Source of the DNA: a virus
Lineage: Duplodnaviria > Caudoviricetes
Strand: one strand, 5' to 3'
Length of the DNA: 56,156 nucleotides
IMG/VR virus record: IMGVR_UViG_3300045932_000155
Location: 1-56,156 of that record
The notes beneath the pieces are model-generated. The model worked only from the letters and a program-made list of their open reading frames with translations, made no database searches and was not told the DNA's origin. Shown here one piece after another: positions 28,638-55,869 of this stretch (its first letter is position 1; each line of letters begins with the position of its first letter). Both the position numbers and the translations under genes were made by a program.

Positions 28638-28653
28638 TGCAAACGCCGTGCCA
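28638..28653 (-). promoter_or_regulatory. sigma54-type promoter for the helicase unit
   Basis: TGGCACG-GCGT-TTGCA, intergenic, ~45 nt before the ATG. Confidence 0.8.
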
Positions 28654-28726
28654 CCCCACTTTGGGCCCGTTTATGCCCATTCCGGGCACGGGACCGGCCG
28701 TCGAGGTTACAGACGTGGTATGCCGA

Positions 28727-28915
28727 TTACGTTCGTCCGAGGTTCAGCCGGGCGGCCACCAGCCGGTCCCGGCCCGCGTCCCCCGTAGGCCGCAACCCGG
28801 CCCAACGGCCGCCGTCGAGGCCCGACAGGTGGCGCTGGATCTCCGCCCGGTCCTTCGGGTCCACCCGGTCGAGGGCCCGCTTCGCTGCGTCGAGGAAGAA
28901 CTCCCGGCGGTTCAT
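28727..28915 (-). CDS. Hypothetical protein
   Basis: SD GGAGG; coupled to a small upstream ORF (28912-29055). Confidence 0.45.
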   Translation of the reverse strand: MNRREFFLDAAKRALDRVDPKDRAEIQRHLSGLDGGRWAGLRPTGDAGRDRLVAARLNLGRT

Positions 28916-29302
28916 GACGCCCTCCGCACCATCGTCACGACGTCCCCGGCCTTCGGCGCGGGCGCGTCAGTCTTGATGCGCCAACCCCGGGCGTAGAAGA
29001 AGTCGTAGTCGACGCTCCCGTAGACTGCGAATCGGCAATCCTTCAGTGGTGTCATCGCTCCTCCGTTCTTGAATGGAACCGAGGAAGTCCCGGCCTTCGG
29101 CCGCAGCCTCCAGCACGTCCCCGGCTTCCGCCATTCGTCGGTTCAATCGACCAAGGTCCATGACCCCCTCCTTCACCGGGGATCATACAACGGGACCCCG
29201 GACCCGTTACAAGAGAATCGACATCAGAATGGTCCCGAGGAAGTAAGCCGCGCCAACCACCCCGAGCCACTTGTCGCCATCGCGCTTCACGCCAGTGTGT
29301 GA

Positions 29303-29318
29303 TGCACGACCCGTGCCA
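29303..29318 (-). promoter_or_regulatory. sigma54-type promoter (leftward member of a divergent pair)
   Basis: TGGCACG-GGTC-GTGCA. Confidence 0.6.
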
Positions 29319-29448
29319 ACCGGAATCGGCCCGGAAACGCGGGCTGGACCCGAGGGCGTCCCCGGGAGGGGACGACAGAATTGTCAGAGTGACCACGAAC
29401 GTTGTCATCGCCCTCGGGGCCGTGCCCCGGATTCAGGCGCGTGCTCGA

Positions 29449-29464
29449 CGGCACGGGACTTGCA
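29449..29464 (+). promoter_or_regulatory. sigma54-type promoter (rightward member, ahead of the replication block)
   Basis: CGGCACG-GGAC-TTGCA followed by GGAGG and ATG 29489. Confidence 0.7.
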
Positions 29465-29488
29465 TCACACATGACGGAGGTGAACCCT

Positions 29489-29659
29489 ATGGCAGCAGCC
29501 TCACGTCAGGTTCGTCTGGACGACGGATTCCTCTACGAGATCCGCCGGGGGATCGTCTACGGGCAGTGGCGGCGCGATTCCCGGGAGATGAGCCCCGTGG
29601 TCGATCCGGCGGTCATCAAGGAAGTGCGGGCAGCCCTCGAAGCAGCGAGGCGGAGTTGA
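29489..29659 (+). CDS. Small hypothetical protein
   Basis: SD GGAGGTG; first gene after the promoter. Confidence 0.6.
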   Translation: MAAASRQVRLDDGFLYEIRRGIVYGQWRRDSREMSPVVDPAVIKEVRAALEAARRS

Positions 29660-30768
29660 GACGAACCGGGCAGCAGCGTGAAACGTCGGCCATCATGCCG
29701 GACCTCCCGCGCCCGTTCCGCATCGGCGGCCGGGCCGAGGCCACGTTGATCGGTGAATACACGCGGGTCGTCTCGGAGGCCCGGCGCGAAGGTTGGCTCA
29801 AGCCGCTCGTCGCGGCGCACGGCACTCCTTGCACTCAGGAGGAGGCCATCGTTATGATGACGGACGCGCTGGAGATGGGGATCTGGCCGCCACGGCCGTT
29901 GGCCCCGCGATACGGGCCGGTCAAGATCGTGTTTCGGCGCGGGGTGCGTGGCCGGGCGGGAGCCCGGCGGATCGTGCTGCCAAGCACGCCCGGCGGCAGG
30001 ATCGGCTGCCTGCGGGTCGGGTTGGCGCTCCACGAGGTGGCGCATACGATTGCCGACCGGGCGCACGGTCGGCGCTGCAAGCACGGCCCGGAGTTCAGGA
30101 CCACGCTCCGGAAGCTGGTCGAGCACTGGTGGTCAGGAAGGAAACGTATGGACCTGCGAGAAGTCTACGACCGGCACCCCGGGCCCTACAGCCTCGTGAT
30201 CACCAAGGAGGGCGGCAAGTCCGAGGTGATCGGTCCGTTCCCCACGGCCGACTCAACGCACGAAGCTGCGAAGCGCGTCTACGCGGAGAAGCGCGTGCTG
30301 ATGATCTGCGTGTTCAGCGACCACCTCCGCTACTTCATCGGAGTCAACTATGACGAGGACAACATCGGAAGGCTGGAACTGGCTCCTGAACGCGAACAAA
30401 GAACACTACTTTCGGAACGGCAAGAGCCTGTGCAGCCGGTGGGGCCTGTTCGCGCAGCCGAAGAGCCTGCCGAGCGAACCCATGTGGAAGCCCCCGTGCG
30501 TGACGTGCCAGCGGCGGCGGAACGCCGAGTTAGCAGCCGCAAGCCCGGAGCCCTCCTCGAACTCGACCCCGGCAACGCCGAGCAGTGGCCCCGCTCTGCA
30601 GCGGCGCAACTGATCCGCAGCACCCTCGAAGCCCACGGCGCGATGAGCGCGTCGGCCTTGGCCGACGCCACCCGCCAGCAGATGATCGAACTGAAGGTCG
30701 CCCACCCGGCATCCCTCGTCTCCCGACTGAAGCAGGCCGGGCTGCTTCGGATCAAGGAGGAAGTATGA
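29656..30768 (+). CDS. SprT-like zinc metallopeptidase domain protein with a C-terminal wHTH-like region (start at 29656 or 29695)
   Basis: LALHEVAH...HGPEF; C-terminal MSASALAD...SLVSRLKQAGLL. Confidence 0.7.
   Translation: MRRTGQQRETSAIMPDLPRPFRIGGRAEATLIGEYTRVVSEARREGWLKPLVAAHGTPCTQEEAIVMMTDALEMGIWPPRPLAPRYGPVKIVFRRGVRGRAGARRIVLPSTPGGRIGCLRVGLALHEVAHTIADRAHGRRCKHGPEFRTTLRKLVEHWWSGRKRMDLREVYDRHPGPYSLVITKEGGKSEVIGPFPTADSTHEAAKRVYAEKRVLMICVFSDHLRYFIGVNYDEDNIGRLELAPEREQRTLLSERQEPVQPVGPVRAAEEPAERTHVEAPVRDVPAAAERRVSSRKPGALLELDPGNAEQWPRSAAAQLIRSTLEAHGAMSASALADATRQQMIELKVAHPASLVSRLKQAGLLRIKEEV
30350..30613 (+). CDS. Small putative zinc-finger protein nested out of frame in the SprT-like gene
   Basis: SD GGAG; EGWNWL.N..K.HYF..GKSLC..W...C..C pattern. 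Confidence 0.55.
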   Translation: MTRTTSEGWNWLLNANKEHYFRNGKSLCSRWGLFAQPKSLPSEPMWKPPCVTCQRRRNAELAAASPEPSSNSTPATPSSGPALQRRN

Positions 30769-32244: not shown

Positions 32245-34233
32245 ATGGCACGCACGAAGGACCCCGGGCAGGGCAACTTTCTCGATGGCCTCTATAGGGA
32301 CCAGATGCACGAATCCGTCTCCGAGTGGCGTCTCCCGGAACTCCCCAGTCTGCACGGGGTCTCCGAGGTGTTCATGGACTTCGAATCCACCGGCGTTCGT
32401 TGGTGGGATGGCGACGTGCTCATCGGCGGAGCCATCCTCACCGACGACGGCCGGTCGTGGTATTTCCCCGTGCGCCATCGGGTCGGCCCCAACATTGATC
32501 CGGCGACGTTCTTCCGGTGGTGCAAGGGCGAGTTGGCCGGGAAGAAGATCACCAACATCCGGACGAAGTTCGACCTGCATCTGGCCCGGCGGGACGGGGT
32601 CAACTTCGACGACTTGGGCTGCACGTTCGGGGACGTCGCGCACTACGCGGCGCTGCTCGACGATCACCGGCAGCGATTCAATCAGGAAGTCCTCGCCCGC
32701 GACATCCTGAAGGACCCGGCCGGGAAGATGACCACGGTAAACGGGTTCGTGCTGGACCCCACCAAGTTCGCGGACTACCCTGCCGGGCTGATCGCGCACC
32801 GGGCCATCCATGACGTCACGACCGTCGCCCGGCTCAAAGCCGCCATGTGGCCCCAACTGACGGCGGAGGACCTGCACCGGGTGCGGGAACTCGAAGAGCA
32901 GATCATCCCGGCCGTCGTCGAGATGGAGCACAACGGCGCTCCGATCAATCAAGAGAAGCTGCACCTCTGGTGCGAGGAATCTCAGCGGGATCTCGAAGCG
33001 GTCATGTGGCGCATCCAGAAGGCGGGCCACAAGCTGGCGACCCCGGACTCCCGGGACGACATCATGCGGATGTTCAAGAACCTCAAGATCGAGGTGCCCC
33101 TCGACCCGGAAACGGGCCAGCCGAGTTTCGCGGACTCGCTGCTGGAGAAGATCGAACATCCGACCGTGCAGGACCTGCGGGAGGCCAAGCAACTCGCCAG
33201 CCTGCGGTCGAAGTTCCTGCTCAAGTATCAGAGCAGCACCTCCCGCGACGGCATCCTGCGCTACGAACTGCACCAGTTGCCCTTCCAGCGGGAGGACGAA
33301 GACGGCGGCGGGGGCGCGGTCAGCGGCCGGTTCTCCTCGGCGGCTCCCAACCCGCAGGAGGGCGCGAACGTCCAGCAGGTCTTCGGTGTGAAGCGCCAGA
33401 AGAAGTCCTTCACGAAGAAATACATCATCCGGGAACTCTTCGTGCCGCAGGAAGGCCTGTGGGGATCGGCGGACGCCAGCCAGATCGAATATCGCATCTT
33501 CGGTGACAAGTCCCGGGACAAGAAGATCATCGAGGCGTATCGCACGGACGCCAAGACGGACTACCACGAACTCGTGCAGCGACTCATCAACGAGTTCACC
33601 GGCAAGGACCTGATCCGCGAGGATACAAAGGCCGTCAACTTCGCGCAGGTCTACGGCGCGGGCATTCGCAAGCTGGCCTCCCAGTTGAAGGTGCCCGCCA
33701 ATCAGATCCCGGCGATGGACGAACCGCTCGACGCGGGCGGCCCGAAGTTCCAAGAGGTGGTCAAGCTCTCGGAGACCTATCACGGCATGTTCCCCACGGT
33801 GAAACCCACGCTGCAGTTGGCCAGCCATCTGGCGATGCCCGGGCACAAGGAGGGCGACAGAGGCTGCGGTCGGGCGTGCCGAGACTTCTACCGCCGGGGC
33901 CTGCGCCACAGGGGCTACGTCAAGACGGTCCTCGGCCGCCGGGCCCGGTTCGGGCCTCACGACCGGCATTACTCGGCCCTCAACCGCTCGATTCAGGGGT
34001 CGGCTGCCGACATCAACAAGCTCGTGCTCGTGGCGCTCCATCGGAACCGGCATCAGTTGGAGATCACCCCGCGCTTCACCGTCCACGACGAGTTCAACGG
34101 CGACTTCAGGAACCCGAGCAAGATGCCGCAGATCATCGAGTGCTTCAATACGCAGTATCACCCGCTCCGCGTTCCGATCATTTGGGATGTGCGGTCGGGA
34201 GCCAACTGGGCGGAGGCAAAGTCCGGTGGCTAA
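32245..34233 (+). CDS. polA: DNA polymerase, family A, with 3'-5' exonuclease domain
   Basis: DFESTG, KFDL, SGRFSS, NVQQ, ADASQIEYR (motif A), KAVNFAQVYG (motif B), NRSIQGSAAD, TVHDE (motif C). Confidence 0.95.
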   Translation: MARTKDPGQGNFLDGLYRDQMHESVSEWRLPELPSLHGVSEVFMDFESTGVRWWDGDVLIGGAILTDDGRSWYFPVRHRVGPNIDPATFFRWCKGELAGKKITNIRTKFDLHLARRDGVNFDDLGCTFGDVAHYAALLDDHRQRFNQEVLARDILKDPAGKMTTVNGFVLDPTKFADYPAGLIAHRAIHDVTTVARLKAAMWPQLTAEDLHRVRELEEQIIPAVVEMEHNGAPINQEKLHLWCEESQRDLEAVMWRIQKAGHKLATPDSRDDIMRMFKNLKIEVPLDPETGQPSFADSLLEKIEHPTVQDLREAKQLASLRSKFLLKYQSSTSRDGILRYELHQLPFQREDEDGGGGAVSGRFSSAAPNPQEGANVQQVFGVKRQKKSFTKKYIIRELFVPQEGLWGSADASQIEYRIFGDKSRDKKIIEAYRTDAKTDYHELVQRLINEFTGKDLIREDTKAVNFAQVYGAGIRKLASQLKVPANQIPAMDEPLDAGGPKFQEVVKLSETYHGMFPTVKPTLQLASHLAMPGHKEGDRGCGRACRDFYRRGLRHRGYVKTVLGRRARFGPHDRHYSALNRSIQGSAADINKLVLVALHRNRHQLEITPRFTVHDEFNGDFRNPSKMPQIIECFNTQYHPLRVPIIWDVRSGANWAEAKSGG

Positions 34234-37391: not shown

Positions 37392-37452
37392 CATGTTCAC
37401 TCTGTGGTGAACATGGCCGATTCGGTGAACATCAGTTGGCACGGGAAGTGCA
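37392..37452 (+). promoter_or_regulatory. Inverted repeat operator plus sigma54-type promoter
   Basis: CATGTTCAC-N6-GTGAACATG (37392-37415), a third half-site at 37425, then TGGCACG-GGAA-GTGCA (37437-37452). Confidence 0.6.
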
Positions 37453-37464: not shown

Positions 37465-37707
37465 TTGAACGATTACCGATGGCTGGCTGCGGCGGTCTTG
37501 ATTCGGGCAATGGAAGATGCCGTCAGCCATACGGTCGAACGGCACCCCGGCTCGATGGCCTCGTGGGAAGACACCGAGGACGCCCGGCGGTTTTTGACGG
37601 AGCCGAGTGAAGATCTGGAATTCTGGTGCGCCCTCGCGGGCGTGACGATGGACGGGGTGATCCGGTATGGCCGGGCCCTCGCGAGAGGAGGATGGAGTGG
37701 CAGGTAA
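37465..37707 (+). CDS. Small helical hypothetical protein
   Basis: LAAAVL..A.ED...ARRFL......FWC.LAG; TTG start after GGAGG. Confidence 0.6.
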   Translation: MNDYRWLAAAVLIRAMEDAVSHTVERHPGSMASWEDTEDARRFLTEPSEDLEFWCALAGVTMDGVIRYGRALARGGWSGR

Positions 37708-38263
37708 AGGCGGCAAATACAAGGCCCTCAAGGGCAAGATCCCGGTGCAGCCGTCCGAGCGGGACGAGGCCATCTCGGCAGCCATCAAGGAGCGGGAGGG
37801 CAAGTCCCACACCGAACTGATGGAGGAGTTGAACGCGCTCGAACCGAAGATCGCGGAGAAGGCCGCCGAGTTGAAGGCCCTGAACACGACCTACGACGCG
37901 CTCGACATCATGATCCGAGAGCGGCTGGAAGGCCTGAACGTCGATGGCGTCAAGGCCCACGGGTTCACGTGGTCCAAGAACGTCGAGCCCTTCCCCGTCG
38001 TTCGGGCTGCCGACGTGGAGCAGATCGTGCAATACTTCCGCGACAATGGCATGGAGGACCAGTTGGCCCTGAAGGCCAGCGAGATCGCGGGACGCCTCAA
38101 GACCTTCGTGAAGGAAGAGGCACTCGCAGGCGAGTTCGAGATCGAAGAGGTGGAGGTGCCCGATCCGGAGACCGGCGGGACCAAGACCATCAGTGAGGTG
38201 CGGAGCAAGATCCCGGGGGTCCGCATCTTCCTGAGCGAAAAACTCTCCCGGACCAAGTCCTAA
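37697..38263 (+). CDS. Coiled-coil phage replication/recombination-associated protein
   Basis: SD GAGGAGG; coiled coil then LKTFVKE...IPGV; precedes the SSB-like gene. Confidence 0.6.
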   Translation: MAGKGGKYKALKGKIPVQPSERDEAISAAIKEREGKSHTELMEELNALEPKIAEKAAELKALNTTYDALDIMIRERLEGLNVDGVKAHGFTWSKNVEPFPVVRAADVEQIVQYFRDNGMEDQLALKASEIAGRLKTFVKEEALAGEFEIEEVEVPDPETGGTKTISEVRSKIPGVRIFLSEKLSRTKS

Positions 38264-45252: not shown

Positions 45253-47645
45253 GCGACGTTCGTTTTCTGGTGCAGCGGTATCTCAACGAGGGCTTCGGAC
45301 GCCCGCACCCGATCCCCCGTGGCGAGAAGGGCCCGAGGATCAAGGGCTGGAACGACCCCGAGGTGAAGTTCGCCGTCGAGGACTTTGGGGAGACCGACAA
45401 CGTTGGCACGGCGCTCACCGGCGACCTCGTGGACATCGACCTCGACTGCATGGAGGCGGTGAAGGCCGCCCATCGGTTCCTGCCGACGACCGGCCGCATC
45501 CACGGCCGCCCGGGCAAGCCCTCCAGCCACTACTGGTATCGCGTCGAGGGCATGAAGCTGGAGCAGTTCCGCGACGTGCCCCGCCCCGATGGCGACGGCA
45601 AGCCCAAGGTCGGGATGCTCTGCGAAATCCGGACGGGCCCCACGTATCAGACGGTGCTCCCGCCCTCGCTCCACGGAGCCTCGGGTGAAACGCTGACGTG
45701 GGAAGCCGACCGTGAGGCGTCGAGCGTGGATGGCAAGACCCTGCGCCGCGCTGTGCTGCTCACGGCCGTCACGGCGCTGATCGTGCGGTCGTGGCCCAAG
45801 AGCGGACGCCATCAGGCGCTGCTCGACCTCACGGGGTTCCTCTACCGCCAGAAGATCGATGCCAAGGAGTGCATCGAGATCCTCTCGGAGATCACGCTGC
45901 AGGCCGAGGGCGAGGTGTGGAAGGACTGCGAGAGCAGCGTCCGCAGCACCTACTCGAAGACCCCGGCCGAGGGTGCCAAGACGACTGGCGGCCCGGCCTT
46001 GGAGAAGATCTTCGGCAAGGACGTCGTCGAGCGTCTGCGTGCGTGGTTCGGCGCGGGCCGGAGTGCGGAGGAGAAGTTCGAGGCCATCGTCGAGGAGATG
46101 AACGCCAAGCACTTCTACGTCACCATCGGCGCGGACACCGTGATTGGCACCGAGAAGGCCGACAAGGTCGTGTTCCAGTCCGAGCGTGCCATGTATGCGT
46201 GGTATGCCAACCAGAAGGTGGCCCTCGGCACCCGTCAAATCGCCAAGGGTCCGAGGAAGGGCGAGACCGAAGTCGAGACGCGCTCCAAGTTCGAGATCTG
46301 GCGTGAGCACCCGAAGCGCCGACAGTTCCGCTCCGTCGTATTCGCTCCGCCTCCGCACGCGGCGCATCCCGAAGACCTGAACCTCTGGAAGGGCCTCGCC
46401 ATTGAGCCCGCGCCCGGCGACTGCACGCTCTTCCTCGACCACCTGCTGAACAACATCTGCAGCGGGAACCAGTCCTACTACGAGTATCTGATGGACTGGT
46501 GCGCCCTGCTCGTGCAGCGTCCCGGCGTGCCCGCCGACGTGGCCGTCGTGCTGCGCGGCGGTCAGGGCGTAGGCAAGGGCATCTTCGCCCGCAACCTCGG
46601 CCGCATCTTCGGCCGCCACTTCGCCCACCTCGACAAGGTGGACCACCTGACGGGCCACTTCAACGCTCATTTGTCCGGCAAGGTGCTGGTGTTCGCGGAC
46701 GAGGCGTTCTTCGCTGGCGACAAGAAGGAACTGGGTGCGCTGAAGCGCGTCATCACGGAGCCCACGCTGACGGTGACGCGCAAGCGCATCGACTCGGAAG
46801 AGGAGGCCAACTTCTGCCACATCGTGATGGCCACCAACGAGCACTGGTCGTGCCCGGCGGATATGGACGAGCGCCGGTTCTTCGCGCTGCTCGTCGGCAA
46901 CGCCCGCAAGCAGGACATCGAGTATTTCACCAAGGTGCAGCAGCAGTTGGACGCTGGCGGCCTGCAGGCGTTCCTCGACCTGCTCCTGCGGAGGCCCGTC
47001 GATCCGGCCCGCGTGCGCCGTGCGCCGAAGACCGAGGAATACAGGGTGCAGCAGGAGTTGACGCTGTCCAACGAGCACAAGTGGTGGTTCGAGAAGCTCT
47101 CGACAGGCAAGCTGGAAGCGGGTATCGTCGAAGACGGACCTGACTGGCCGGAACTGATGGTCACCAGCCTTGCCCACGAGGATTACCTCGGGTGGTGCGA
47201 ACGGCAGCGGATCTTCCGTCGCCTGACCACGATGGAGTTGGCGAAGCGCATTCTCAGGGACTACTTCGCGGGCCCGGCAGAAAGGCCCCGACTCGGAAAG
47301 CTTCGAGCGATGGCTTACCCGCTCGTGCCATTGACAAGGGCAAGGGAGATCTTTGACAAGCAGGTCGGCACCAAGGGGGACTGGGAAGACGTCGAAACGC
47401 CCACCCCCGCGCCGCCCGCACCGGGCGCACCCCGGGGGCCGAAGGCCGAGCCGCGCCTGCCGTTGGCCGATCCGAGGCCGGTGGAACGGGAACCGGGCGA
47501 CGAGCAGGAAGGCCTCGGGGAACCGGCTGTCCTTGGCCGTGTGGCGGGCTCCGAGGGAGGCCGGGGCACGGATACCCCGGAACGCGCTGAGGGCGACGTG
47601 GGCCGCCAGCCGGGGGCCGAAGAGGACGAGGAACTGCCCTTCTAG
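45249..47645 (+). CDS. Primase-helicase (prim-pol N-terminus, SF3/DUF5906-type helicase)
   Basis: KGP...GW, NVG, VDIDLD, SHYWY, TVLPPS.H; GGQGVGKG, FADE, ATN, ERRF. Confidence 0.9.
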   Translation: MSDVRFLVQRYLNEGFGRPHPIPRGEKGPRIKGWNDPEVKFAVEDFGETDNVGTALTGDLVDIDLDCMEAVKAAHRFLPTTGRIHGRPGKPSSHYWYRVEGMKLEQFRDVPRPDGDGKPKVGMLCEIRTGPTYQTVLPPSLHGASGETLTWEADREASSVDGKTLRRAVLLTAVTALIVRSWPKSGRHQALLDLTGFLYRQKIDAKECIEILSEITLQAEGEVWKDCESSVRSTYSKTPAEGAKTTGGPALEKIFGKDVVERLRAWFGAGRSAEEKFEAIVEEMNAKHFYVTIGADTVIGTEKADKVVFQSERAMYAWYANQKVALGTRQIAKGPRKGETEVETRSKFEIWREHPKRRQFRSVVFAPPPHAAHPEDLNLWKGLAIEPAPGDCTLFLDHLLNNICSGNQSYYEYLMDWCALLVQRPGVPADVAVVLRGGQGVGKGIFARNLGRIFGRHFAHLDKVDHLTGHFNAHLSGKVLVFADEAFFAGDKKELGALKRVITEPTLTVTRKRIDSEEEANFCHIVMATNEHWSCPADMDERRFFALLVGNARKQDIEYFTKVQQQLDAGGLQAFLDLLLRRPVDPARVRRAPKTEEYRVQQELTLSNEHKWWFEKLSTGKLEAGIVEDGPDWPELMVTSLAHEDYLGWCERQRIFRRLTTMELAKRILRDYFAGPAERPRLGKLRAMAYPLVPLTRAREIFDKQVGTKGDWEDVETPTPAPPAPGAPRGPKAEPRLPLADPRPVEREPGDEQEGLGEPAVLGRVAGSEGGRGTDTPERAEGDVGRQPGAEEDEELPF

Positions 47646-47649
47646 GGAC

Positions 47650-47925
47650 GGGCAGTGGACGGGGAGGGGACGAGGAAAAGGGCCAGTCGTCCACTTGCAC
47701 GTCCAGCCTAAGTCCCGAGGGCTCAGGACTTTAGGGTGGAATGGACGACATGGGAGTTGGACGAGGGGCTCTCAACTTGACACACGGATGAGGGATGAAC
47801 TAGTTGGTTCCTCCTTATATGTTAAATAGATACATTGTCCAAGTCGTCCAAGTCGTCCAAAGGCTGTCAACCCTCGGTTCCACGCGGGTTTACGGCGGAC
47901 GAAGTGCGAGACGAGATGGACGAGG
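47650..47925. other. Putative replication origin
   Basis: Multiple TGGACG/CGTCCA hexamers, tandem GTCCAAGTC repeats at 47837-47860 and an AT-rich patch (47811-47836) directly after the primase gene. Confidence 0.55.
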
Positions 47926-48423
47926 TGCTGCCCCGTGGCAGGCCCTCGAAACCGCCGCCCGGCAAACGCCGGGCAGGCCGCGCCAGCCGGGTCGCGGAGG
48001 ACCCCTACGATGGCCTTCGTAGTTCCTGACACCCCTGTCAACGTTTTGACACCTGACCCCGGGCGTTTTAGGTCAGGTGACCGTGGGAGCAGCGTAGGCC
48101 CGGGCCGCCTGCTGGCGTTCCGGCCGCGCCGCGAGGCCAACCCGGACCGGCTGGAGGCCGCCATGCGCTGGTCGGCCGCCTACGTTCGGGCCGGGCATCG
48201 GCCGCCGGAGCGCTGGTAGCGCCCACCGTCATGCGTGAATCGCGTAAGTCCCGCGTTCAGTAGGACTTGCAAGTTAACATAACTACTCTTATCGGACGTT
48301 CGTCGTCCTTTCGCCTCGCATCGCCCGGGTTCGGGCCAAACCCGGCCGCCGGGCAACGTGTCGCGGCCTTCGAACAATTCCGACATGACGATCCTGATCT
48401 GTCGTCCGAGACGACCTGAGACT

Positions 48424-48589
48424 CGATTGCAGATGTGGGATCTGTAATCGAACAGTCAGTGACTGTCTTCGACTGTCTCTGACTGTCTCCGCCCGGCGCG
48501 ATGGCAGATGTGGGATTTGTAATCGCCTTCGAGTGTCTCAGCGAGGAGTCTCTTTTCAGGTGCGATGCCAAATGTGGGATTTGTAATCA
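48424..48589. repeat. Three 27-bp imperfect palindromes CGATTGCAGAT-GTGGG-ATCTGTAATCG
   Basis: Copies at 48424-48450, 48499-48525 and 48563-48589, interleaved with GACTGTCT repeats. Confidence 0.85.
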
Positions 48590-48712
48590 GACAGTCAGTG
48601 TCTCAGTTGACTGTCTCTGGTCCCAGTTCCGGGAATCCTCTAGGGGTTAGGGGGATAATTACAAAAGCGGAGCGGAAAGACACTGTCTCCGGCGCGACTG
48701 TCTCGACTGTCT

Positions 48713-48895
48713 CTCCAAAATTGTCATGACGTTTCTGAGTCTGCGAGTGTCTCAGACGAGAGTCGCTCCGAAATTGTCATTACGCTTCTGAGTCTGAGAG
48801 AGTGTCACGCAGGTGTCTCTCCAGAATCGTCATGACGTTTCTGAGTCTGCGAGTGTCTCTCACGGGAGTCACTCCAGAAACGTCATGACGCTCCT
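48713..48895. repeat. 53-bp tandem repeat (about 3.5 units) with palindromic core
   Basis: Units start at 48713, 48766, 48819, 48872; consensus core CAGAAACGTCATGACGTTTCTG is self-complementary. Confidence 0.9.
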
Positions 48896-49077
48896 GTTCT
48901 CGCAGCGAGGGCAAGCTGCCAAACGAGAAACGTGATCCGACCGACGCAAACGTCGCCCGAAGTGGGCAGCCGGAGCGCCTGCCACGGCGATTGCAGAAAC
49001 CGACACACCACGTAGGGTTTTGCAATCGGAATGGCGCAGCAGGGCCCAAGGAGGGCCAGATCCCCGGGCATTCGGGG

Positions 49078-49093
49078 TGGCACGCTGCTTGCA
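49078..49093 (+). promoter_or_regulatory. sigma54-type promoter
   Basis: TGGCACG-CTGC-TTGCA then GGCAGGAGG and ATG 49120. Confidence 0.85.
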
Positions 49094-49119
49094 CCATCAG
49101 TGGGGCAGGAGGCGACCAG

Positions 49120-49425
49120 ATGGGCAGAACCTACACCCCGGCTTACGCCATCGAGATTGACGTCCCGGGCTTCATCTATACCCCGGCAGGCTGGACGGCC
49201 CGCGAGTTCGGCCGCCCGACCGACGCCAACCTGAAGCTCTACGTCGAGCGCTTCGAGGCCTCGACGCAGCCCGGCGGCGCGAACGCGCACCTTGGCCCGA
49301 CCAAGGTTCGCGCAGCCCGCATCTACACGAATCGCGGGGAGCGCAAGCTGGTGGCCAGCTACCCGGCGCAGCCCCTCAAGCTCGCGGGCCGGATGATAGG
49401 CTCCGCCAACCCCGAACGCCTGTAG
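49120..49425 (+). CDS. Hypothetical early-type protein
   Basis: SD AGGAGG, directly after the promoter. Confidence 0.7.
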   Translation: MGRTYTPAYAIEIDVPGFIYTPAGWTAREFGRPTDANLKLYVERFEASTQPGGANAHLGPTKVRAARIYTNRGERKLVASYPAQPLKLAGRMIGSANPERL

Positions 49426-49434
49426 GAGGTTCCC

Positions 49435-49785
49435 ATGAGACTTGGCAGCGACACGAACAGCGTGAGCAACTGGATGATGAGCGGCCCGGGCCAGCCGAAG
49501 CCCGAAGTGGGCATGGGCGCGACGGTGCTGGCGTGGACGGATCGCTACGCGGGCACCATCACGAAGGTGTCCCCGAGCGGCAAGACCATCGAGGTCACCG
49601 AGGACGACACCGAACTGATCGCGGGCAAGATGCTCTCCGAGCATCAGGAGTATCGCTACACGCCCAACCCCAACGGCCGGAAGCGCACCTTCCGCCTGAA
49701 CAAGAAGGGCTGCTGGCGCGAAACGGGACGGGGCGCAGGGCTGCGCTTGGGCACGCGGGAAGCCTACCGCGACCCGAGCTTCTAA
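49435..49785 (+). CDS. Hypothetical phage protein
   Basis: SD AGGAGG; PEVGMGAT...TDRYAGTI...YRDPSF. Confidence 0.75.
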   Translation: MRLGSDTNSVSNWMMSGPGQPKPEVGMGATVLAWTDRYAGTITKVSPSGKTIEVTEDDTELIAGKMLSEHQEYRYTPNPNGRKRTFRLNKKGCWRETGRGAGLRLGTREAYRDPSF

Positions 49786-49866
49786 GAACGTAATCGTGAT
49801 CGCAGGGCTGCCATCCACATGAGGCAGCCCTGCCCACGAGCAGGGGCAAACGCTAGGCTTTCCGCT

Positions 49867-49882
49867 TGGCACGTGGGTTGCA
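49867..49882 (+). promoter_or_regulatory. sigma54-type promoter
   Basis: TGGCACG-TGGG-TTGCA then GGCAGGAGG and ATG 49911. Confidence 0.85.
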
Positions 49883-49910
49883 TAGGGATGGGGGCAGGAG
49901 GAACGACGCC

Positions 49911-50450
49911 ATGATCAACATCGACGCGATTCGTTGGGCACGCAAGGCATGCGACTGGGCAGACGCACCCCGGGTGACGAGCCCCTCGACCATCGAGGCG
50001 GCCGAAGCCCTGCCGCACATCGAGATCCGAACTCCGCATCCGATGGCGCACTTCGCGCAGGAGATGCCTCGGTTCTTCGTGGCCCTGCTGCCGGGCAACC
50101 GCCGGGTGCTGGTGAACACCGAGGGCTACACCTACGCTCGATACATCGCGGCCCTCCCCGATGCGCCTGTCGCCCCGGCCAAGGGGACCAGCGTCACGGT
50201 GCTGGCCGAGGGGCTGGCTGCCGAGCGCAGCCTGATCGTCACGGACTACGGCGCGGCGCTGAGCATCCTCGCCAACCGCGTGCGCGAGGCGCAGGAGCGC
50301 TTGGCCGATGCGAACCCGGGCGTTCGGGAGATCATCCACCACCACGACGCGCACAACATTGGCGCGGCGCTGCAGGACGTCACGCGGCTGGCGGGAGCCT
50401 ACGAGGAGTTCCGGCGCTTCGAGCGCCTCGCCCGCAAGGAGGGCCAGTGA
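49911..50450 (+). CDS. Hypothetical protein
   Basis: SD AGGAGG; LVNTEGY.YARY. Confidence 0.7.
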   Translation: MINIDAIRWARKACDWADAPRVTSPSTIEAAEALPHIEIRTPHPMAHFAQEMPRFFVALLPGNRRVLVNTEGYTYARYIAALPDAPVAPAKGTSVTVLAEGLAAERSLIVTDYGAALSILANRVREAQERLADANPGVREIIHHHDAHNIGAALQDVTRLAGAYEEFRRFERLARKEGQ

Positions 50451-50599
50451 AGCCCGCGCCGAAGTGGAGCGCGAAGATGGGCTGCGTGATCTACCCGGTG
50501 TATGCCCCGAGCGGCAAGCTGGTGTGGGTCACGATTCCCGAGCGAGAGTAGGAGCACGTCAACCGGCCTCGCAGCAAGCGTAGGCCAAAGGAGCACGCC

Positions 50600-50923
50600 A
50601 TGTTCAACGGAGAATTCGTGCAGCGTCACCAGAGCATCGCCAAGGACGGCACGCAGGGCGTTCGGTTCGAGGCGATCTACGATCTGCGGGCCGGGGGCAA
50701 GCCGCACAAGGTTCGCATCACCATCATCTCGGACGCCTACAAGACGCAGTCGGTCGCCAAGGTCGAGCGCTTCTCGGGCAGCGTGTGGCAGCAGATCGGA
50801 CGCCTCGCGCACGGGGAGATGGTCACGCCCGAGGGCCTCTGCTACGGGAAGCCCGCGACTCCTTCCGCGTTTGCCGAGGACGTCGAAGCCCTGCAGGCGC
50901 TCACGCTGGCGGTGCTGTCATGA
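50600..50923 (+). CDS. Hypothetical protein
   Basis: SD AAGGAG. Confidence 0.7.
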   Translation: MFNGEFVQRHQSIAKDGTQGVRFEAIYDLRAGGKPHKVRITIISDAYKTQSVAKVERFSGSVWQQIGRLAHGEMVTPEGLCYGKPATPSAFAEDVEALQALTLAVLS

Positions 50924-51105
50924 AGTTCCACGTGTTCCTGCTGACGATCACCACGACCGGGCGGATCGACGCCCGGAAGCTGGCCGAGTTCCTCGAACCC
51001 GATGACGCGCTGGCCTACGCCAAGCAGAAGGCCTTTCGCAGCCATCGCAACGTGATGGTGGTGCATCCTGATGGGAGCGCCTCCATCCACTCGGAGCACG
51101 CATGA
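50920..51105 (+). CDS. Hypothetical protein
   Basis: ATGA coupling. Confidence 0.5.
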   Translation: MKFHVFLLTITTTGRIDARKLAEFLEPDDALAYAKQKAFRSHRNVMVVHPDGSASIHSEHA

Positions 51106-51425
51106 CGAGGCGCGGCAATTGCTACGTCGCCAGCGAGGCGCTCTACCACGCCCTTGGAGGCAAACGCGCAGGCTGGACGCCATGCGTGCTGCGGATGCCG
51201 GACGGAGAACGCCACTGGTTCCTGCGCGGGCATGGCGTCGTGTTGGACCCGAGCGCGAGGCAGTTCAGCCCTCGGGACCGCAGACGCATTCCCTACACGC
51301 AGGGGCGAGGCACGGGCTTCCTGACGAAGCGGCCGTCACGCCGAGCCCGAGCGCTGCTGCAGGCGATGACGTGGCAGATCCCAACAGCGAGTTCCCTGCG
51401 GAACCTGAAAGGCCGCCAACGATGA
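51102..51425 (+). CDS. Hypothetical protein with a possible Cys-His-Asp (papain/transglutaminase-like) triad
   Basis: GNCYVASEALYH...HWFL....VLDP. Confidence 0.55.
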   Translation: MTRRGNCYVASEALYHALGGKRAGWTPCVLRMPDGERHWFLRGHGVVLDPSARQFSPRDRRRIPYTQGRGTGFLTKRPSRRARALLQAMTWQIPTASSLRNLKGRQR

Positions 51426-51775
51426 GACCCCAAGGCGGAGGCTGCGCGGTCGGCTGGCGCGGGGATCTCTGGCAGCGGGTGTGGGCCAAGACGGCAGCAC
51501 CCTCGGCACCCGGCGGGTGCATCCTGTGGCGCGGCGCGTGTAGCCGGACACGTTCGGGCCCGCGCCCGGTGATCCATACCAAGGGGCGCAGCGTGGATCG
51601 CGTGGCCCGCATCGTGTGCGAGTGGTTCCACGGGCCCGCGCCAAGCCCGGAGCATCGAGCCGGGCATACGTGCCCGGGAGGCGAGAACAAGATGTGCGTC
51701 AACCCCAACCATCTCCGGTGGATGACGCAGAGCGAGAACGAGCAGCAGAAGCAGAGCTACAGGAGGTCAGCATGA
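51422..51775 (+). CDS. HNH (His-Cys box) endonuclease
   Basis: CILW.GA, VARIVCE.FHG, HTC......CVNPNHL.W.T..EN. Confidence 0.85.
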   Translation: MRPQGGGCAVGWRGDLWQRVWAKTAAPSAPGGCILWRGACSRTRSGPRPVIHTKGRSVDRVARIVCEWFHGPAPSPEHRAGHTCPGGENKMCVNPNHLRWMTQSENEQQKQSYRRSA

Positions 51776-52065
51776 TGCTACGAGTGCGGAGGCGGTTCAC
51801 TCCGATTACGTGCGACGAGTGGAATGACCAGCCCTTCGAGAGGATGGTCTGGTCCTACGACACCGAGACCCATCACGTGATGGTGTTCTCTGGCCTGCAG
51901 GAGGGCTATCAAGCGGGGCTGCTGGACTGTCGTATTGGGGATCGGATGGTGCCCCTGATCGAGTTCGATGAGGCGCTCAAGCAGACGCGCAAGCGCGAGG
52001 GCATCTACTACAACGGCAACCCGTGGACGCGGGCTTTGATTCTCGCGGCCATCCACGTGGCGTGA
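51772..52065 (+). CDS. Hypothetical protein
   Basis: SD GGAGG; coupled start. Confidence 0.55.
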   Translation: MMLRVRRRFTPITCDEWNDQPFERMVWSYDTETHHVMVFSGLQEGYQAGLLDCRIGDRMVPLIEFDEALKQTRKREGIYYNGNPWTRALILAAIHVA

Positions 52066-52769
52066 TGGTGACCGGCCTTCTCTACCGCGACCCGGACCGG
52101 CCCAGTCTGGTGTTCGACGAGTTCAGTTACTTTGCGGGCTTCGCCAAGGAGGGCTCCATGATTCTGAGATGCGTGCGCGACGGCAGGCTGACGACGAGCG
52201 AGGCCAACGAACTGCGGATCGGGGGTCAGCCCGGCCTGTGCGAGTGCGGCGCGGCGCTCCTGCGCGAGGACGTGCCCTTGCTCCTGCCCGTCTCCCAAGT
52301 GCCCGGCGCGTGCGCTCAGACCATTGTGCGGACGGTGTTGGGCCAGCGGCGCATGGCGGACGTCATGCTTGGCGACCCGCGCTACCCGTGGGTGACGTGC
52401 CCGTTCTGCTCCTCGGCGTTCTACCTCGCGGAGGCTCCGCCGGAGCACGCGAAGAGCGTGACGGTCGGCACGCAGGGGCGCTGCGCCAATCCGTGGTGCG
52501 AGGCCAACCCGAACATGCCGCTCGACGCGGCGCGGCTGGCCCGGGGCCAAGAGCATCTGCGGTGGATGGAATATGAAGAGCGGGAGCGGAATCACCGGGC
52601 GGCCATCGAGCGGCTGCGGCTGGACCGCGAGGCGCAGCGGGAACGGATGCAGGCGAACATCGACCGCGCCAAGGCCGAGGGCTTCTGCACGTATTGCGCG
52701 GCCAAGGGGAAGTTCGTCAGGCATCGGATGATCGGCGGGTGCCCGGCGCAGATGCGGGGGCGTCGATGA
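52065..52769 (+). CDS. Cys-rich coiled-coil hypothetical protein
   Basis: CEC, CPFC, CANPWC, CTYC; coupled start. Confidence 0.55.
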   Translation: MVTGLLYRDPDRPSLVFDEFSYFAGFAKEGSMILRCVRDGRLTTSEANELRIGGQPGLCECGAALLREDVPLLLPVSQVPGACAQTIVRTVLGQRRMADVMLGDPRYPWVTCPFCSSAFYLAEAPPEHAKSVTVGTQGRCANPWCEANPNMPLDAARLARGQEHLRWMEYEERERNHRAAIERLRLDREAQRERMQANIDRAKAEGFCTYCAAKGKFVRHRMIGGCPAQMRGRR

Positions 52770-53014
52770 AGTTCCTGCGCTCGTTTCTCGATGATCTCAA
52801 GCTGCCCGAGGGCTGCTTGCTCATCTGCCACGACGAGAATCACAACGGGCCCGGTGGCTGCGGCGACCCGGCCTGCTGGAAACACGTGCCGGGCCAATCG
52901 CCTCCGCCGAAGAACTACCGGCCGCCGAACTGCCGATGCCCACAGGGGACGTTCCCCGGGGACGCGACGGTAGCCGGAATAAGGGCCAACGTCCGGCGGC
53001 CAGCGGGCTGGTAG
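52766..53014 (+). CDS. Small Cys-rich hypothetical protein
   Basis: ATGA coupling; CLLIC...C...C. Confidence 0.45.
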   Translation: MKFLRSFLDDLKLPEGCLLICHDENHNGPGGCGDPACWKHVPGQSPPPKNYRPPNCRCPQGTFPGDATVAGIRANVRRPAGW

Positions 53015-53127
53015 CCCGAAGAAGGGCTATGACAAGGGCTGTAATAACGATTCCGGGATTGTAACCTCCGGGGGTCGGTCGCCCGGGGCACCCTCGGGAA
53101 TCCGGCCGGATTCCGCCCGGCCGGGGC

Positions 53128-53143
53128 TGGCACGGCGCTTGCA
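53128..53143 (+). promoter_or_regulatory. sigma54-type promoter
   Basis: TGGCACG-GCGC-TTGCA then GGAGG and ATG 53169. Confidence 0.85.
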
Positions 53144-53168
53144 CTATAGACCGGCGGAGGGCGCGACC

Positions 53169-53456
53169 ATGACCTGCAAAGCGAGCCGACTGACCTACGA
53201 CGGGAAACGCTACGAGGTGTCGAGTGACGGGACGGTGCGGCAGATCCTGAGCACGCAGACCGGGACGAGCCCCGAGGGCAAACCGATGGTGGCCCGGGTC
53301 TACGGCCAGCCCGAGGAGCGCGAGTTCGCCCGGCTGGTGATCGCGGACGCGGCGCGGCAGCGTCGGAACCGGAACGCCCGCGCCAAGCACGAAGCCCTGA
53401 CCGGCCTTGGGCTGGTGCGGGTGCGCGGAGCCCTCGGCGGCGTCTACTACGAGTAG
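53169..53456 (+). CDS. Hypothetical protein
   Basis: SD GGAGG; ends LGLVRVRGALGGVYYE. Confidence 0.7.
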   Translation: MTCKASRLTYDGKRYEVSSDGTVRQILSTQTGTSPEGKPMVARVYGQPEEREFARLVIADAARQRRNRNARAKHEALTGLGLVRVRGALGGVYYE

Positions 53457-53493
53457 GATTCGGCCGCCGAGCGGCGGCCAAGGAGGAACGACG

Positions 53494-53922
53494 ATGACCA
53501 AGCAGCAGATGGCGGAACGGATCGCGGCGCTCGAAGCGGAAGTGGCGGCCCTGAAGCCGAGCCGGTTCGTGGCGACCGAGGACTCGATCAAGGTCACGCC
53601 CGCGCCCGCGTGGGGCCGAGCGCAGGAGACCGTGAGCAAGGCGGCGGCGCGGATCGCGGCGCGGGAGGCCTCGAACGGCTACTCCTACGATTCCTTCGGT
53701 CCGACGCAGTGGGCCCGGCTGGCGGAGATGCTGGCCAAGCGCGGCCTGACGGCTCCGGAGATCAAGGGTGTGCTGCGCTCGAAATACACTCGGTGGGCGC
53801 GGGACTCCTACGGCCCGGCGAAGGGGTTCTACAAGGCGCAGGTCGTCATCGACTACCTCGACAACCCGAGCAACAGAATCACGAACGCCCGGATTCAGGA
53901 TCTCGTGACGGAGGAGCAGTAA
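53494..53922 (+). CDS. Hypothetical protein
   Basis: SD AAGGAGG. Confidence 0.7.
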   Translation: MTKQQMAERIAALEAEVAALKPSRFVATEDSIKVTPAPAWGRAQETVSKAAARIAAREASNGYSYDSFGPTQWARLAEMLAKRGLTAPEIKGVLRSKYTRWARDSYGPAKGFYKAQVVIDYLDNPSNRITNARIQDLVTEEQ

Positions 53923-54257
53923 TGGAAGCCCAGTGGATCGAGAAGCTCGTCATCGGCAACCTCGTCGTGGTGAACGGCGGGGCTCTGACCACGCAGCGGA
54001 TCGAGCGCGTGGCGAAGATCACCCCGACGCAGATCGTGCTGGCCAGCAAGGAGCGCTTCCGCCGGAAGGACGGCCAGCGGATGGGGGATGCGGGCGATTG
54101 GCATACGTGCTGGATCTACGAGGCCACTCCGGAACGGCTCCGCGAGGTGCGCGTGGCTTCGGCCCGGGCCCGCGTGAGGCACATCGACTGGAGCAAGCTC
54201 CCCGACGACTTCGTGATCGAAGTCTGCCAGCGGGCCAAGGACCTGCTGCCGAAGTGA
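53922..54257 (+). CDS. Hypothetical protein (SH3-like beta-barrel pattern)
   Basis: TAATG coupling; VAKITPTQIV...RFRRKDG. Confidence 0.65.
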   Translation: MEAQWIEKLVIGNLVVVNGGALTTQRIERVAKITPTQIVLASKERFRRKDGQRMGDAGDWHTCWIYEATPERLREVRVASARARVRHIDWSKLPDDFVIEVCQRAKDLLPK

Positions 54258-54763
54258 TCTCGACCGGCTGGTGGGGCATCCCCGGGATGATCTCGGACTC
54301 CGCGACCCGGGCCACGAAGGTCCACGCGGCGCGGGACGGCAAGCCCATCTGCGGAGCCCGCGTCGGGCCCACGCAGGCATTCCAATGGTGCGCGGCCGGG
54401 GTGCAGCGGGACTATCTGGAGTGCAAGCGCTGCCTGAAGCTGACGGAGGGCTGGCGGTTTGACGACATGCGGTTCACCCCGACCGAGCGGGGCCACTGGC
54501 TGCGCGTGCGCGAGAGCTTCATGGGCCGCCGGGTGACCGGCATCTGCGTGCGGTCGGAGGTCGATGGGAAGCGCACGCTCCGGGTCACTAAGCTTCCGAA
54601 GCCCACGAAGATCGTCACGACCTACTCGGACATCGTCGGCGGAGTGCGGCTCGAAGATGAGATCGAAGGCTTCGTGTCGTGGAATCTGGACGACCTGCTC
54701 CCGCGCCGGGACTGGCGCGAGGTGAATTGCGGGCAGCGGTGCTGCTCGAAGGAGGAACGATGA
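54254..54763 (+). CDS. Hypothetical protein with a zinc-finger-like N-terminus
   Basis: KVH....GKPICG...ECKRC; GTGA coupling. Confidence 0.55.
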   Translation: MISTGWWGIPGMISDSATRATKVHAARDGKPICGARVGPTQAFQWCAAGVQRDYLECKRCLKLTEGWRFDDMRFTPTERGHWLRVRESFMGRRVTGICVRSEVDGKRTLRVTKLPKPTKIVTTYSDIVGGVRLEDEIEGFVSWNLDDLLPRRDWREVNCGQRCCSKEER

Positions 54764-55551
54764 ATCGCTTTCTCTCCATTGGCCAGCCGGTGCAGGCCGG
54801 GGTGCATCCGGAACGTGTCGGTCAGTTCTATGAGATGAATACCGGACACATCTACGGGGATGCGATCCAGTTCACGCTCCTGCGAGATCTCGGATCGAGG
54901 GAGGTGTCCTATCCGGGCTGGATGAAGCGCAAGGGACCCCCGACCGTCGTGCATCGGTTTCTGGTGCGCGTGGAAGACAAGGAGATGATCATTTCCTTGC
55001 GCGGGCCCAACACGTCGGCGGCCCACGCGCTGCGAATGTTGATCGGAGGCCATCGGAAGCCGATGGTCATCGATGCCATCGCCAAGCACATGCAGAGCCC
55101 TCGCGGGGACTTCTACGTGTGGCGTTTCTTCCCGACCTACTGGCCGGGCAGCGACATCCGAACGCCCGAGAGCTACCGGGCGCATCTGCAGAAATACCTC
55201 ACGCTGAACATGGACTTTCACTCAGTGGTGGCCGAGCGCCTCGGTATTTCGAGGGACGAGGCCAAGCGCCGGAACTTCTGGAGCCTCTACGGCGGAGACC
55301 CGCGCCGGTTCGCCATCTTTCCCAAAGGAGCAGCCATGAAAAAGCAGAAGCCGAACAACTATTTCGTCGTGCCGAACTCGGTCGGGGAACGCTACGAGGG
55401 CATCGGGGAGGGCCACCCGACGCTCAAGGCCGCCGTCACTGACGCCTCGGAGCGGACCAACAAGGACGGCGTCGAGCGGTGCGTGCTCCAGCGGGTGCGC
55501 GTCATCCGGCGCAAGCCGCAGCCGGTGGTCGTCGAGAAGGTCAAGGCGTGA
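54760..55551 (+). CDS. Composite hypothetical protein with an internal start at 55336
   Basis: SD AAGGAGG; in-frame AAGGAG-ATG at 55336; PolA motif-B-like peptide near 55213-55293. Confidence 0.55.
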   Translation: MNRFLSIGQPVQAGVHPERVGQFYEMNTGHIYGDAIQFTLLRDLGSREVSYPGWMKRKGPPTVVHRFLVRVEDKEMIISLRGPNTSAAHALRMLIGGHRKPMVIDAIAKHMQSPRGDFYVWRFFPTYWPGSDIRTPESYRAHLQKYLTLNMDFHSVVAERLGISRDEAKRRNFWSLYGGDPRRFAIFPKGAAMKKQKPNNYFVVPNSVGERYEGIGEGHPTLKAAVTDASERTNKDGVERCVLQRVRVIRRKPQPVVVEKVKA

Positions 55552-55766
55552 GCCGAGATCCCCGGGCGCGGTTGCACCGGCCGGTGGAGGCGCTGCGACG
55601 AGCGCAGGCGCTGGCCGGTGCCATCCGGATCGCGGAGAGCGACCGGAACCCGAACCGAGCGGCGCAGCTACAGGCCATCTCGGAGGAGTTGTTTCAAACG
55701 GCGCTGGCGGCCTTGGACGGCGGCCCGTTGCCCCCGAACCCGGGCGCTTGGAAGGACGCCCGGTAA
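55548..55766 (+). CDS. Hypothetical protein
   Basis: GTGA coupling. Confidence 0.45.
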   Translation: MSRDPRARLHRPVEALRRAQALAGAIRIAESDRNPNRAAQLQAISEELFQTALAALDGGPLPPNPGAWKDAR

Positions 55767-55853
55767 CGTAATGCTGCCGCCGAAACGGGTATCAGAAGTG
55801 GCCACCCCGCCGTGGAACCCCCGGGAATCCGGCGGGATTCAGCCCGGCCGGGC

Positions 55854-55869
55854 TGGCACGGGCCTTGCA
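55854..55869 (+). promoter_or_regulatory. sigma54-type promoter
   Basis: TGGCACG-GGCC-TTGCA inside a ~50-bp block duplicated from 53095-53146. Confidence 0.85.

Follow-up and report, generated by a model that had tools for sequence, protein, structure and literature searches.

Promoters that depend on the bacterial sigma factor sigma-54 (RpoN) follow the consensus TGGCACG-N4-TTGCW, in which an invariant GG and an invariant GC lie ten bases apart, with transcripts starting some 11 nt past the last base of TTGCA. Since the closed complex of sigma-54 polymerase cannot open unaided, firing needs an activator of the AAA+ type, and sigma-54 is the sole bacterial sigma factor that strictly requires such an ATP-burning protein. 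With regard to phages, two papers describe how YuA, a phage that infects Pseudomonas aeruginosa (Yuavirus, Mesyanzhinovviridae), depends on host sigma-54, and on this account such use is rare, though not unprecedented (PMC10914365, PMC5053324). Here we analyze the entire IMG/VR virus record IMGVR_UViG_3300045932_000155 (Caudoviricetes; 56,156 bp, linear, 65% G+C, about 89% complete by estimate), referred to below as the window, which carries a set of -24/-12 boxes that are very likely genuine sigma-54 promoters; we infer this dependence from the match of the boxes to the consensus, from their placement, and from their recurrence in other phages. The use of sigma-54 by a phage is already known from YuA, and what is new here is the scale, the closeness to the consensus, and the connection with early and replication genes.

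According to the two papers, YuA is a tailed phage that uses host sigma-54 and has no RNA polymerase or activator of its own, and the same is predicted for the window; the primase-helicase of the window is also about 36% identical to Yuavirus proteins over about half its length. The two differ in the number, the targets, and the quality of their promoters. In the RefSeq entry of YuA (NC_010116.1), three promoters bear the label "-24/-12 consensus sequence," and each of them lies in the virion and lysis region (38.4-47.3 kb), whereas the window holds 9-11 sites, almost all before early or replication genes. The YuA sites are far from the consensus (4, 6, and 6 mismatches of 12 in the best 16-mers of the annotated promoters), and the pattern GGCAC-N5-TTGC has no occurrence in the entire YuA genome (58,663 bp); those of the window, in contrast, are near-perfect. 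The original YuA study reportedly contains promoter-trap and rpoN-mutant results. Judged by its proteins the window is not a Yuavirus, because its polymerase A is less than 30% identical to that of any cultured phage, its capsid protein has its best match in a Brevundimonas phage (36%), and only the primase-helicase is YuA-like. Apart from YuA, no further phage with a set of sigma-54 promoters was found in the literature searched, and the sigma-54-like protein predicted for a Pectobacterium phage in another paper is a matter distinct from sigma-54 promoter use (PMC7693777). Some phages redirect the host polymerase with sigma-like factors or cofactors of their own, as for the late genes of T4 and the 28-bp repeat promoters of YuA, and here too repeated promoter cassettes order a temporal program on a compact genome; unlike these, the motif of the window is the consensus of a host sigma factor, and a phage sigma-like gene was not found in it.

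The pattern YGGCACG-N4-TTGCA occurs exactly eight times on the two strands of the window, while 100 dinucleotide-preserving shuffles gave an expected mean of 0.01 and none of them reached eight. Two GTGCA variants, at 29303(-) and 37437(+), deviate by one mismatch each, which brings the strong sites with correct RpoN spacing to ten and bears out the consensus match proposed in an earlier reading of this DNA that was made without database searches (hereafter the sequence-only reading). A weight matrix trained on the ten strong sites, and circular for those ten, returned at a threshold of 12 bits only these sites and a near-match at 11775 from the whole window, with no grey zone of weaker copies. 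The full set thus comprises 11 sites. The matrix draws its information mainly from TGGCACG and TTGCA and leaves the spacer unconstrained. A site at 48980 (TGCCACG...), which is without the GG and falls below the matrix threshold, was not counted. The shuffle and matrix check put forward in the sequence-only reading hence gives a clean set, and the nine sites listed there were all recovered at their coordinates and strands; the list lacked the exact copy at 23660-23675(+) and the near-match at 11775-11790(+). Its statement that no site lies in the structural region is not quite right, since the near-match is found in the tail region. The set of sites as such is borne out, and its description as phage-wide was too broad, the 25-kb structural half having just the near-match and the intragenic copy in the lysozyme gene. 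The near-match is possibly a weak promoter.

The placement of the boxes points in the same direction. On a gene map built from codon-bias calls and domain scans, intergenic DNA amounts to 5,622 bp (10.0% of the window), and eight of the ten strong sites fall within it (binomial probability about 4e-7, hand calculation); the sites 23660 and 40291 are intragenic. Every strong site is co-oriented with the next gene on its strand, in agreement with the earlier claim of intergenic sites pointing into genes. Six boxes, namely 28638(-), 29449, 37437, 49078, 49867, and 53128, end 12-43 nt before a start codon with a Shine-Dalgarno sequence, and five of these starts, 24-43 nt downstream of the box (all but that of 37437), have a GGAGG ribosome site. 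Distances of 55 nt at 55854 and 247 nt at 29303(-) complete the picture, and with 12-55 nt at seven sites the boxes do lie mostly near starts, as had been described. Under sigma-54 geometry, the four boxes at 24-28 nt would give leaders of 13-17 nt with little beyond the ribosome site, and we regard them as putative, very compact cassettes of promoter and ribosome site. Consensus promoters of the sigma-70 type are not enriched in the part of the window searched for them, 40000-56156 (2 found versus 1.3 expected).

The gene map and the distances also agree with the claim that the sites precede early ORFan genes and the replication and recombination module (Table 1). Two of them form a divergent pair, and the open reading frame (ORF) behind its rightward half heads an operon that leads through 29695-30768 to polymerase A, an exonuclease, and a SNF2 helicase. 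The ORFan behind box 49078 is the first gene past a 1.47-kb non-coding repeat region, and the gene behind box 53128 heads an ORFan run that reaches 55766.

Table 1. Sigma-54-type boxes, the adjoining palindrome, and principal genes of the window (distances from box end to start codon).
Feature	Sequence	Position	Strand	Remarks
Minor head protein with ADP-ribosyltransferase domains		3-2018	+	First gene, truncated by record end
Major capsid protein		5288-6361	+	
MobA-like nucleotidyltransferase fused to methyltransferase		8168-9562		Domain scan; within structural block
Family-4 glycosyltransferase-like protein		9559-11571		Domain scan; within structural block
Near-match	TGGCCCGGCGGTTGCA	11775-11790	+	17.0 bits; 30 nt before start 11821; tail-gene region
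Lysozyme		23517-24020	+	
Exact box	CGGCACGCGCTTTGCA	23660-23675	+	Inside lysozyme gene; 362 nt before exonuclease 24038-25168
Exonuclease		24038-25168		Replication/recombination half
UvrD-like helicase		27125-28594	-	PF00580, E 5e-24
Exact box	TGGCACGGCGTTTGCA	28638-28653	-	43 nt before ATG (28594) of UvrD-like helicase
Variant box	TGGCACGGGTCGTGCA	29303-29318	-	Leftward half of divergent pair; top matrix score 32.8; ahead of small ORFs 28912-29055 and 28727-28915
Exact box	CGGCACGGGACTTGCA	29449-29464	+	Rightward half of divergent pair; 24 nt before 56-codon ORF 29489-29659
DNA polymerase A		32245-34233	+	Followed by RNase T-like exonuclease, SNF2 helicase
Variant box	TGGCACGGGAAGTGCA	37437-37452	+	Before 37453/37465-37707 (12 nt), Pam3 gp33/gp34-like genes, DNA methylase
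Pam3 gp33-like and gp34-like genes		37697-39041		
DNA methylase		39108-40226		
Exact box	CGGCACGGCTCTTGCA	40291-40306	+	Inside weakly scoring ORF 40238-40474; 295 nt before GP88-family gene
GP88-family gene		40602-41318		
DUF5906/VapE primase-helicase		45249-47645		
ORFan gene run		49-56 kb		
Exact box	TGGCACGCTGCTTGCA	49078-49093	+	26 nt before ATG of ORFan 49120-49425
Exact box	TGGCACGTGGGTTGCA	49867-49882	+	28 nt before ATG of 49911-50450
Perfect 18-bp palindrome	GGAATCCGGCCGGATTCC	53097-53114	.	Ends 14 nt before box 53128
Exact box	TGGCACGGCGCTTGCA	53128-53143	+	25 nt before ATG of 53169-53456
Exact box	TGGCACGGGCCTTGCA	55854-55869	+	55 nt before 55925-56107, final gene of record

Conservation of the boxes at equivalent positions in other phages adds evidence that goes beyond the sequence-only reading and is consistent with promoter function. 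A search with the helicase returned 14 related viral loci, and whole records were compared. The closest relative, G008 (66 kb, complete, 64% G+C), shares 35 of 72 compared window genes in the same order at 31-78% identity, and G006 and G007 have many structural and replication genes in common with the window. Beyond the helicase and the exonuclease, G001 and G002 have almost nothing in common with the window; in G001, polymerase A and the probable tail-fibre gene of 1,225 aa are in addition matched weakly and in part. Scanned for TGGCAC-N5-TTGCA with at most one mismatch, and with the same pattern reversed as a control, G007 gave 19 matches versus 1, G002 14 versus 1, and G001 13 versus 2; G004 (11 versus 2) and G003 (6 versus 1) hold the same sites as part of G001 and G002, respectively. 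The complete genome of G006 gave 4 versus 3, G008 2 versus 1, and G005, G009, and G010 1 versus 0 each.

Boxes precede the helicase gene or operon in the window, G001 (72 nt), G002 (25 nt), and G008, and the exonuclease gene in the window, G002 (a tandem pair, at distances of 34 and 75 nt), and G008; two further operons have boxes in both the window and G008. With a looser pattern G008 has four boxes versus three in the control, which is no enrichment, and these boxes count as support by their positions rather than their number. All four stand where the window has promoters: at the helicase operon, at the exonuclease, at the homologue of 37697-38263 (GGGCACGCGACGTGCA), and, with CGGCACGCCAAGTGCA at 62786(-), upstream of ORF 61176-62468, the match of window gene 29695-30768. 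No counterpart of box 40291 was seen ahead of the G008 homologue of its downstream gene, and the function of this box is for that reason the least certain of all sites. In G008 (L054, L056), GGGCA takes the place of TGGCA in the boxes that lie upstream of 7481(-), upstream of 50874(-), and ahead of the methylase gene; AACAACG repeats stand a few bases upstream of them and may be a lineage-specific promoter extension.

An alignment of 17 promoter regions from four phages has GGCA at -24 and TGCA at -12 as its only invariant columns, the spacer and flanks being variable, and this pattern is the signature of sigma-54, with GG and GC at a distance of ten bases. Relatives that lack the box have TTGACA/TATAAT-like sequences ahead of the helicase, as expected if this spot is a promoter, and we read them as a putative replacement of promoter class at a fixed promoter position. 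A further relative found by a primase search (L061) has no boxes in 20.6 kb. Given such relatives, the box trait is patchy within this phage group, and it is also present outside it.

The same bipartite motif is present in phages that have hardly any genes in common with the window, which points to a host factor that all of them share. It thereby speaks against the idea that the likeness to sigma-54 is coincidental and that the boxes are recognized by a DNA-binding protein specific to the phage or by some other sigma factor. Phages often carry repeated promoter motifs of their own, the 28-bp repeats of YuA being annotated as needing a phage cofactor; nevertheless, 12 specified positions are matched at the exact RpoN spacing, and a sigma-70-family gene was not found in the window. 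We therefore give hardly any credence to coincidence.

If the boxes are genuine sigma-54 promoters, the source of the activator becomes the central question. The AAA+ activator domain PF00158 was not found above its cut-off in the window, where its sole match (11 bits, sub-threshold) covers the Walker A region within the primase-helicase gene, and no real reading frame contains the GAFTGA motif; for a record that is about 89% complete, the remark of the sequence-only reading that no activator gene is recognizable holds. Likewise, the sigma-54 DNA-binding domain and regions 2 and 4 of sigma-70 were not found in the window. A search for a T7-type RNA polymerase gave no match in the window, its control likewise matching nothing anywhere. 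In scans of 68 predicted proteins or ORFs against Pfam and PHROG, no transcription factor reached its family cut-off; below threshold there were hints of HTH_8 at the N-terminus of the exonuclease, of MarR_2 in 26662-26916, and of RskA_N in 28727-28915. PF00158 is also missing from all five relatives examined for it (G001, G002, G006, G007, and G008), and a comparison of gene content identified no gene shared only by the box-carrying phages and thus no candidate activator.

Because no activator was found in the phage record or its relatives, a host enhancer-binding protein is the most likely source, and, granted that the boxes are sigma-54 promoters, we consider a host origin of the activator fairly probable. 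After infection, host RNA polymerase with sigma-54 would bind at least nine compact cassettes of promoter and ribosome site through their -24 (TGGCAC) and -12 (TTGCA) boxes, each cassette heading a transcription unit. Driven in this way would be the early ORFan genes at 49-56 kb and, from the replication and recombination module, the UvrD-like helicase gene, the operon of polymerase A, the Pam3-like genes together with the methylase gene, and the exonuclease gene. Firing would require an ATP-driven AAA+ activator, most likely a host enhancer-binding protein that is probably already active or acts without a specific upstream site, as the promoters share no enhancer motif. On balance we lean slightly towards this statement as a whole, that is, true sigma-54 promoters read by the host polymerase with the host activator included. 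The bacterial regulons of NtrC, PspF, and FleQ have the same -24/-12 consensus and spacing, and dependence on an ATPase activator is presumed in both cases. The window promoters differ in being viral, in their number within 28 kb, in their very short leaders, and in the lack of a recognizable shared activator or integration host factor (IHF) site and of an adjacent activator gene. Helicobacter FlgR and Chlamydia CtcC are activators that work from solution without a DNA-binding domain. By analogy only, an activator of this type would account for many promoters without a common upstream site.

The sequences upstream of the boxes bring in a second possible source of the activator. The palindrome GGAATCCGGCCGGATTCC ahead of box 53128 has a copy with two mismatches at 55824-55841 and a half-site, CCGGATTC, at 29427-29434; CCGGATTC (or CGGGATTC) begins 21-22 nt before the box at three promoters (53128, 55854, and 29449). 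The palindrome could be either the operator of a dimeric regulator or a relic of promoter-cassette duplication. The 10-mer AACGTAATCG has two exact copies in the window, 28724-28733(-) and 49787-49796(+), both of which begin exactly 80 nt before a sigma-54 box, two copies being too few to judge. Box 49867 has a hairpin with 11-bp arms 65 nt upstream. A mild AT-rich patch is present at -60 to -90 of the promoters, and different palindromes lie ahead of different promoters.

A palindrome at a fixed place above three boxes would suit a small dimeric phage regulator, and with it the view that the boxes are true sigma-54 promoters whose activator or bypass factor is made by the phage, be it an ORFan outside PF00158, an injected virion protein, or the product of a gene in the missing 11% or so of the record. 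For most early genes no Pfam family is matched at its cut-off or better, the record is incomplete, and the promoters offer no common upstream site to a sequence-specific host activator. Moreover, gene 3-2018 encodes two ADP-ribosyltransferase domains (PF03496, E 7e-20; PF01129, E 1e-12) and a ParB N-terminal-like domain at a position typical of packaged minor head proteins, and its product is a possible injected modifier of host proteins. Phage T4 Alt, an injected enzyme of the ADP-ribosyltransferase type, modifies host RNA polymerase and provides a parallel. This view must nonetheless accommodate the failure to find the AAA+ activator domain or GAFTGA in the window, the absence of PF00158 from the five relatives and from 15 other box-rich viral records among the matches listed (see below), and the lack of any gene specific to box-carrying phages. 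We also know of no natural sigma-54 activator that is independent of ATP. A phage-made factor hence appears unlikely to us, although more deserving of attention than the remaining alternatives.

The comparisons made did not single out a host. A nucleotide match to a cultured phage was not obtained for the 3,952-bp stretch 45249-49200, and among cultured phages the primase-helicase is best matched in Yuavirus phages, in Pam3, and in phage CN1 of Bordetella, at an identity of about 36% across 55-56% of its length. Together with polymerase A and the capsid protein, these are distant protein matches across mixed hosts. A protein-cluster search gave only generic methyltransferase clusters with scores below 0.9. 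The Brevundimonas phage StAshley shows no enrichment of boxes (2 matches versus 1 in the control). Patescibacteria were considered and rejected as a host: a scan of genome contigs with the exonuclease returned mostly Patescibacteria bins, at 38-57% identity, as is the case for a widespread gene. Soil metagenomes of several studies contain long contig pieces identical to the window (four DNA runs: X4, X7, X9, and X10), and the same phage is therefore present there; no variants were found at the promoter boxes in these four runs.

Several observations weigh against sigma-54 promoters served by a host activator. Classical sigma-54 promoters mostly have an upstream activator site 80-150 bp upstream, often with an IHF bend, and in the window k-mer enrichment and palindrome scans found no upstream element common to all promoters and no IHF core. 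The start 12 nt past the 37437 box is too close, since transcription is expected about 11 nt past the box; this start would be unusable, which makes the true first gene there uncertain. Boxes 23660 and 40291 are not only intragenic, they are also distant from the next start. Close relatives are inconsistent, with G006 and, under the looser pattern, G008 exceeding their controls by a single box. No RNA run containing the phage sequence was found. As the record is about 89% complete, an activator gene could sit in the missing 6 kb or so.

In order to see how widespread such boxes are, IMG/VR was scanned for TGGCACGGC-N2-TTGCA, which matched at least 115 stretches, and 80 loci among the matches listed were examined. 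The sample is biased, as loci were chosen for one box and some "viral" records may include host DNA. Among these 80 loci, 58 have the seeding box only, 7 have two near-consensus boxes, and 15 have three to six; in the reversed-sequence control, 73 have none and 7 have one. Two of the loci, L141 and L107, are one sequence counted twice, since their six boxes agree down to the flanks and differ only in orientation, and several loci of low G+C may be related, so that the independent lineages number fewer than 15. PF00158 was found at E <= 0.001 in none of the 15 parent records of box-rich loci, again among the matches listed, and a conventional phage activator is therefore not the rule. The survey hints that genomes rich in boxes but lacking an activator gene are no rarity among uncultivated phages.

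Tight tandem or face-to-face arrays of boxes occur in unrelated viral loci, namely L085 (three boxes at 29-nt spacing), L141/L107, L123, and L081. A related observation concerns G007 (L030), where 19 near-consensus boxes in both orientations lie within 6 kb (22641-28636); inverted pairs such as 23368(+)/23401(-) are among them, and immediately behind most of the boxes no gene is evident. Arrays without an obvious gene behind, as in G007, L085, L141, L123, and L081, would fit boxes that bind sigma-54 holoenzyme and act mainly as roadblocks or insulators between operons, or as a sink for the host sigma-54 polymerase. As long as no activator acts, the closed complexes formed by sigma-54 polymerase are silent yet stable, and the two intragenic copies of the window could be seen in the same light. 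However, a sink needs neither strand nor distance constraint, and the geometry of working promoters at nearly every window box, four of them at 24-28 nt from a start with a strong ribosome site, as well as the same geometry in G001 and G002, speaks against such a role, which we regard as very improbable.

A wider proposal is that environmental phages include a sizeable, so far unrecognized set that leaves early and middle transcription to the host sigma-54 polymerase and yet carries no AAA+ activator, by a mechanism that has not been described. This could be a phage-made or injected factor that opens or bypasses the closed complex, for which the ADP-ribosyltransferase gene 3-2018 would be a candidate, or tandem arrays of boxes that capture the pool of sigma-54 polymerase. 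We consider this proposal, in either form, decidedly unlikely. Should the boxes be the sigma-54 promoters that we favor, a phage that keeps its early and replication genes behind them would either have tied its start-up to a host signaling protein or have found a way round the rule. It would also offer a cleaner system than YuA, with about ten near-consensus cassettes conserved across phages that have almost no other genes in common. In host prediction the boxes could be a useful clue, as they narrow the choice to hosts with rpoN; as compact promoter parts they would be tightly off by default, and they would help to interpret phage resistance of rpoN mutants. Their importance would be greatest if the route of activation were unconventional or if the survey's hint of wide occurrence held.

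With respect to the remaining layout, the structural and lysis half occupies 1-24 kb on the + strand. Within it, a 926-aa gene without a Pfam match is the probable tape-measure gene, judged by size and position, and the gene with TIG domains (1,225 aa) probably encodes a tail fibre. The sugar-modification-type genes at 8168-11571 may act in virion or DNA modification. Terminase and portal genes were not found in the window record; the complete relative G008 has a stretch of about 7 kb that is bounded by homologues of the first complete gene and of the primase gene of the window; this stretch matches the gap between the two ends of the window, and terminase and portal are expected there. Rfam and tRNA scans of the window gave no matches. 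In a stretch called intergenic, the translated reading of 51430-51771 suggests an ORF for an HNH-type endonuclease with a CVNPNHL-like motif at its end, and the overlapping ORF 51616-52065 has no Pfam match. Finally, the 1.47 kb at 47646-49119, between the primase-helicase gene and promoter 49078, are without convincing coding potential and contain three full 83-nt repeat units spaced 53 nt. A 22-bp palindrome of the form CAGAAACGTCATGACGTTTCTG is present four times, GACTGTCTC is repeated several times, units like TGTGGGATTTGTAATC occur in three copies, and a short patch at about 47810-47850 is AT-rich. This stretch looks like a replication origin or control region.

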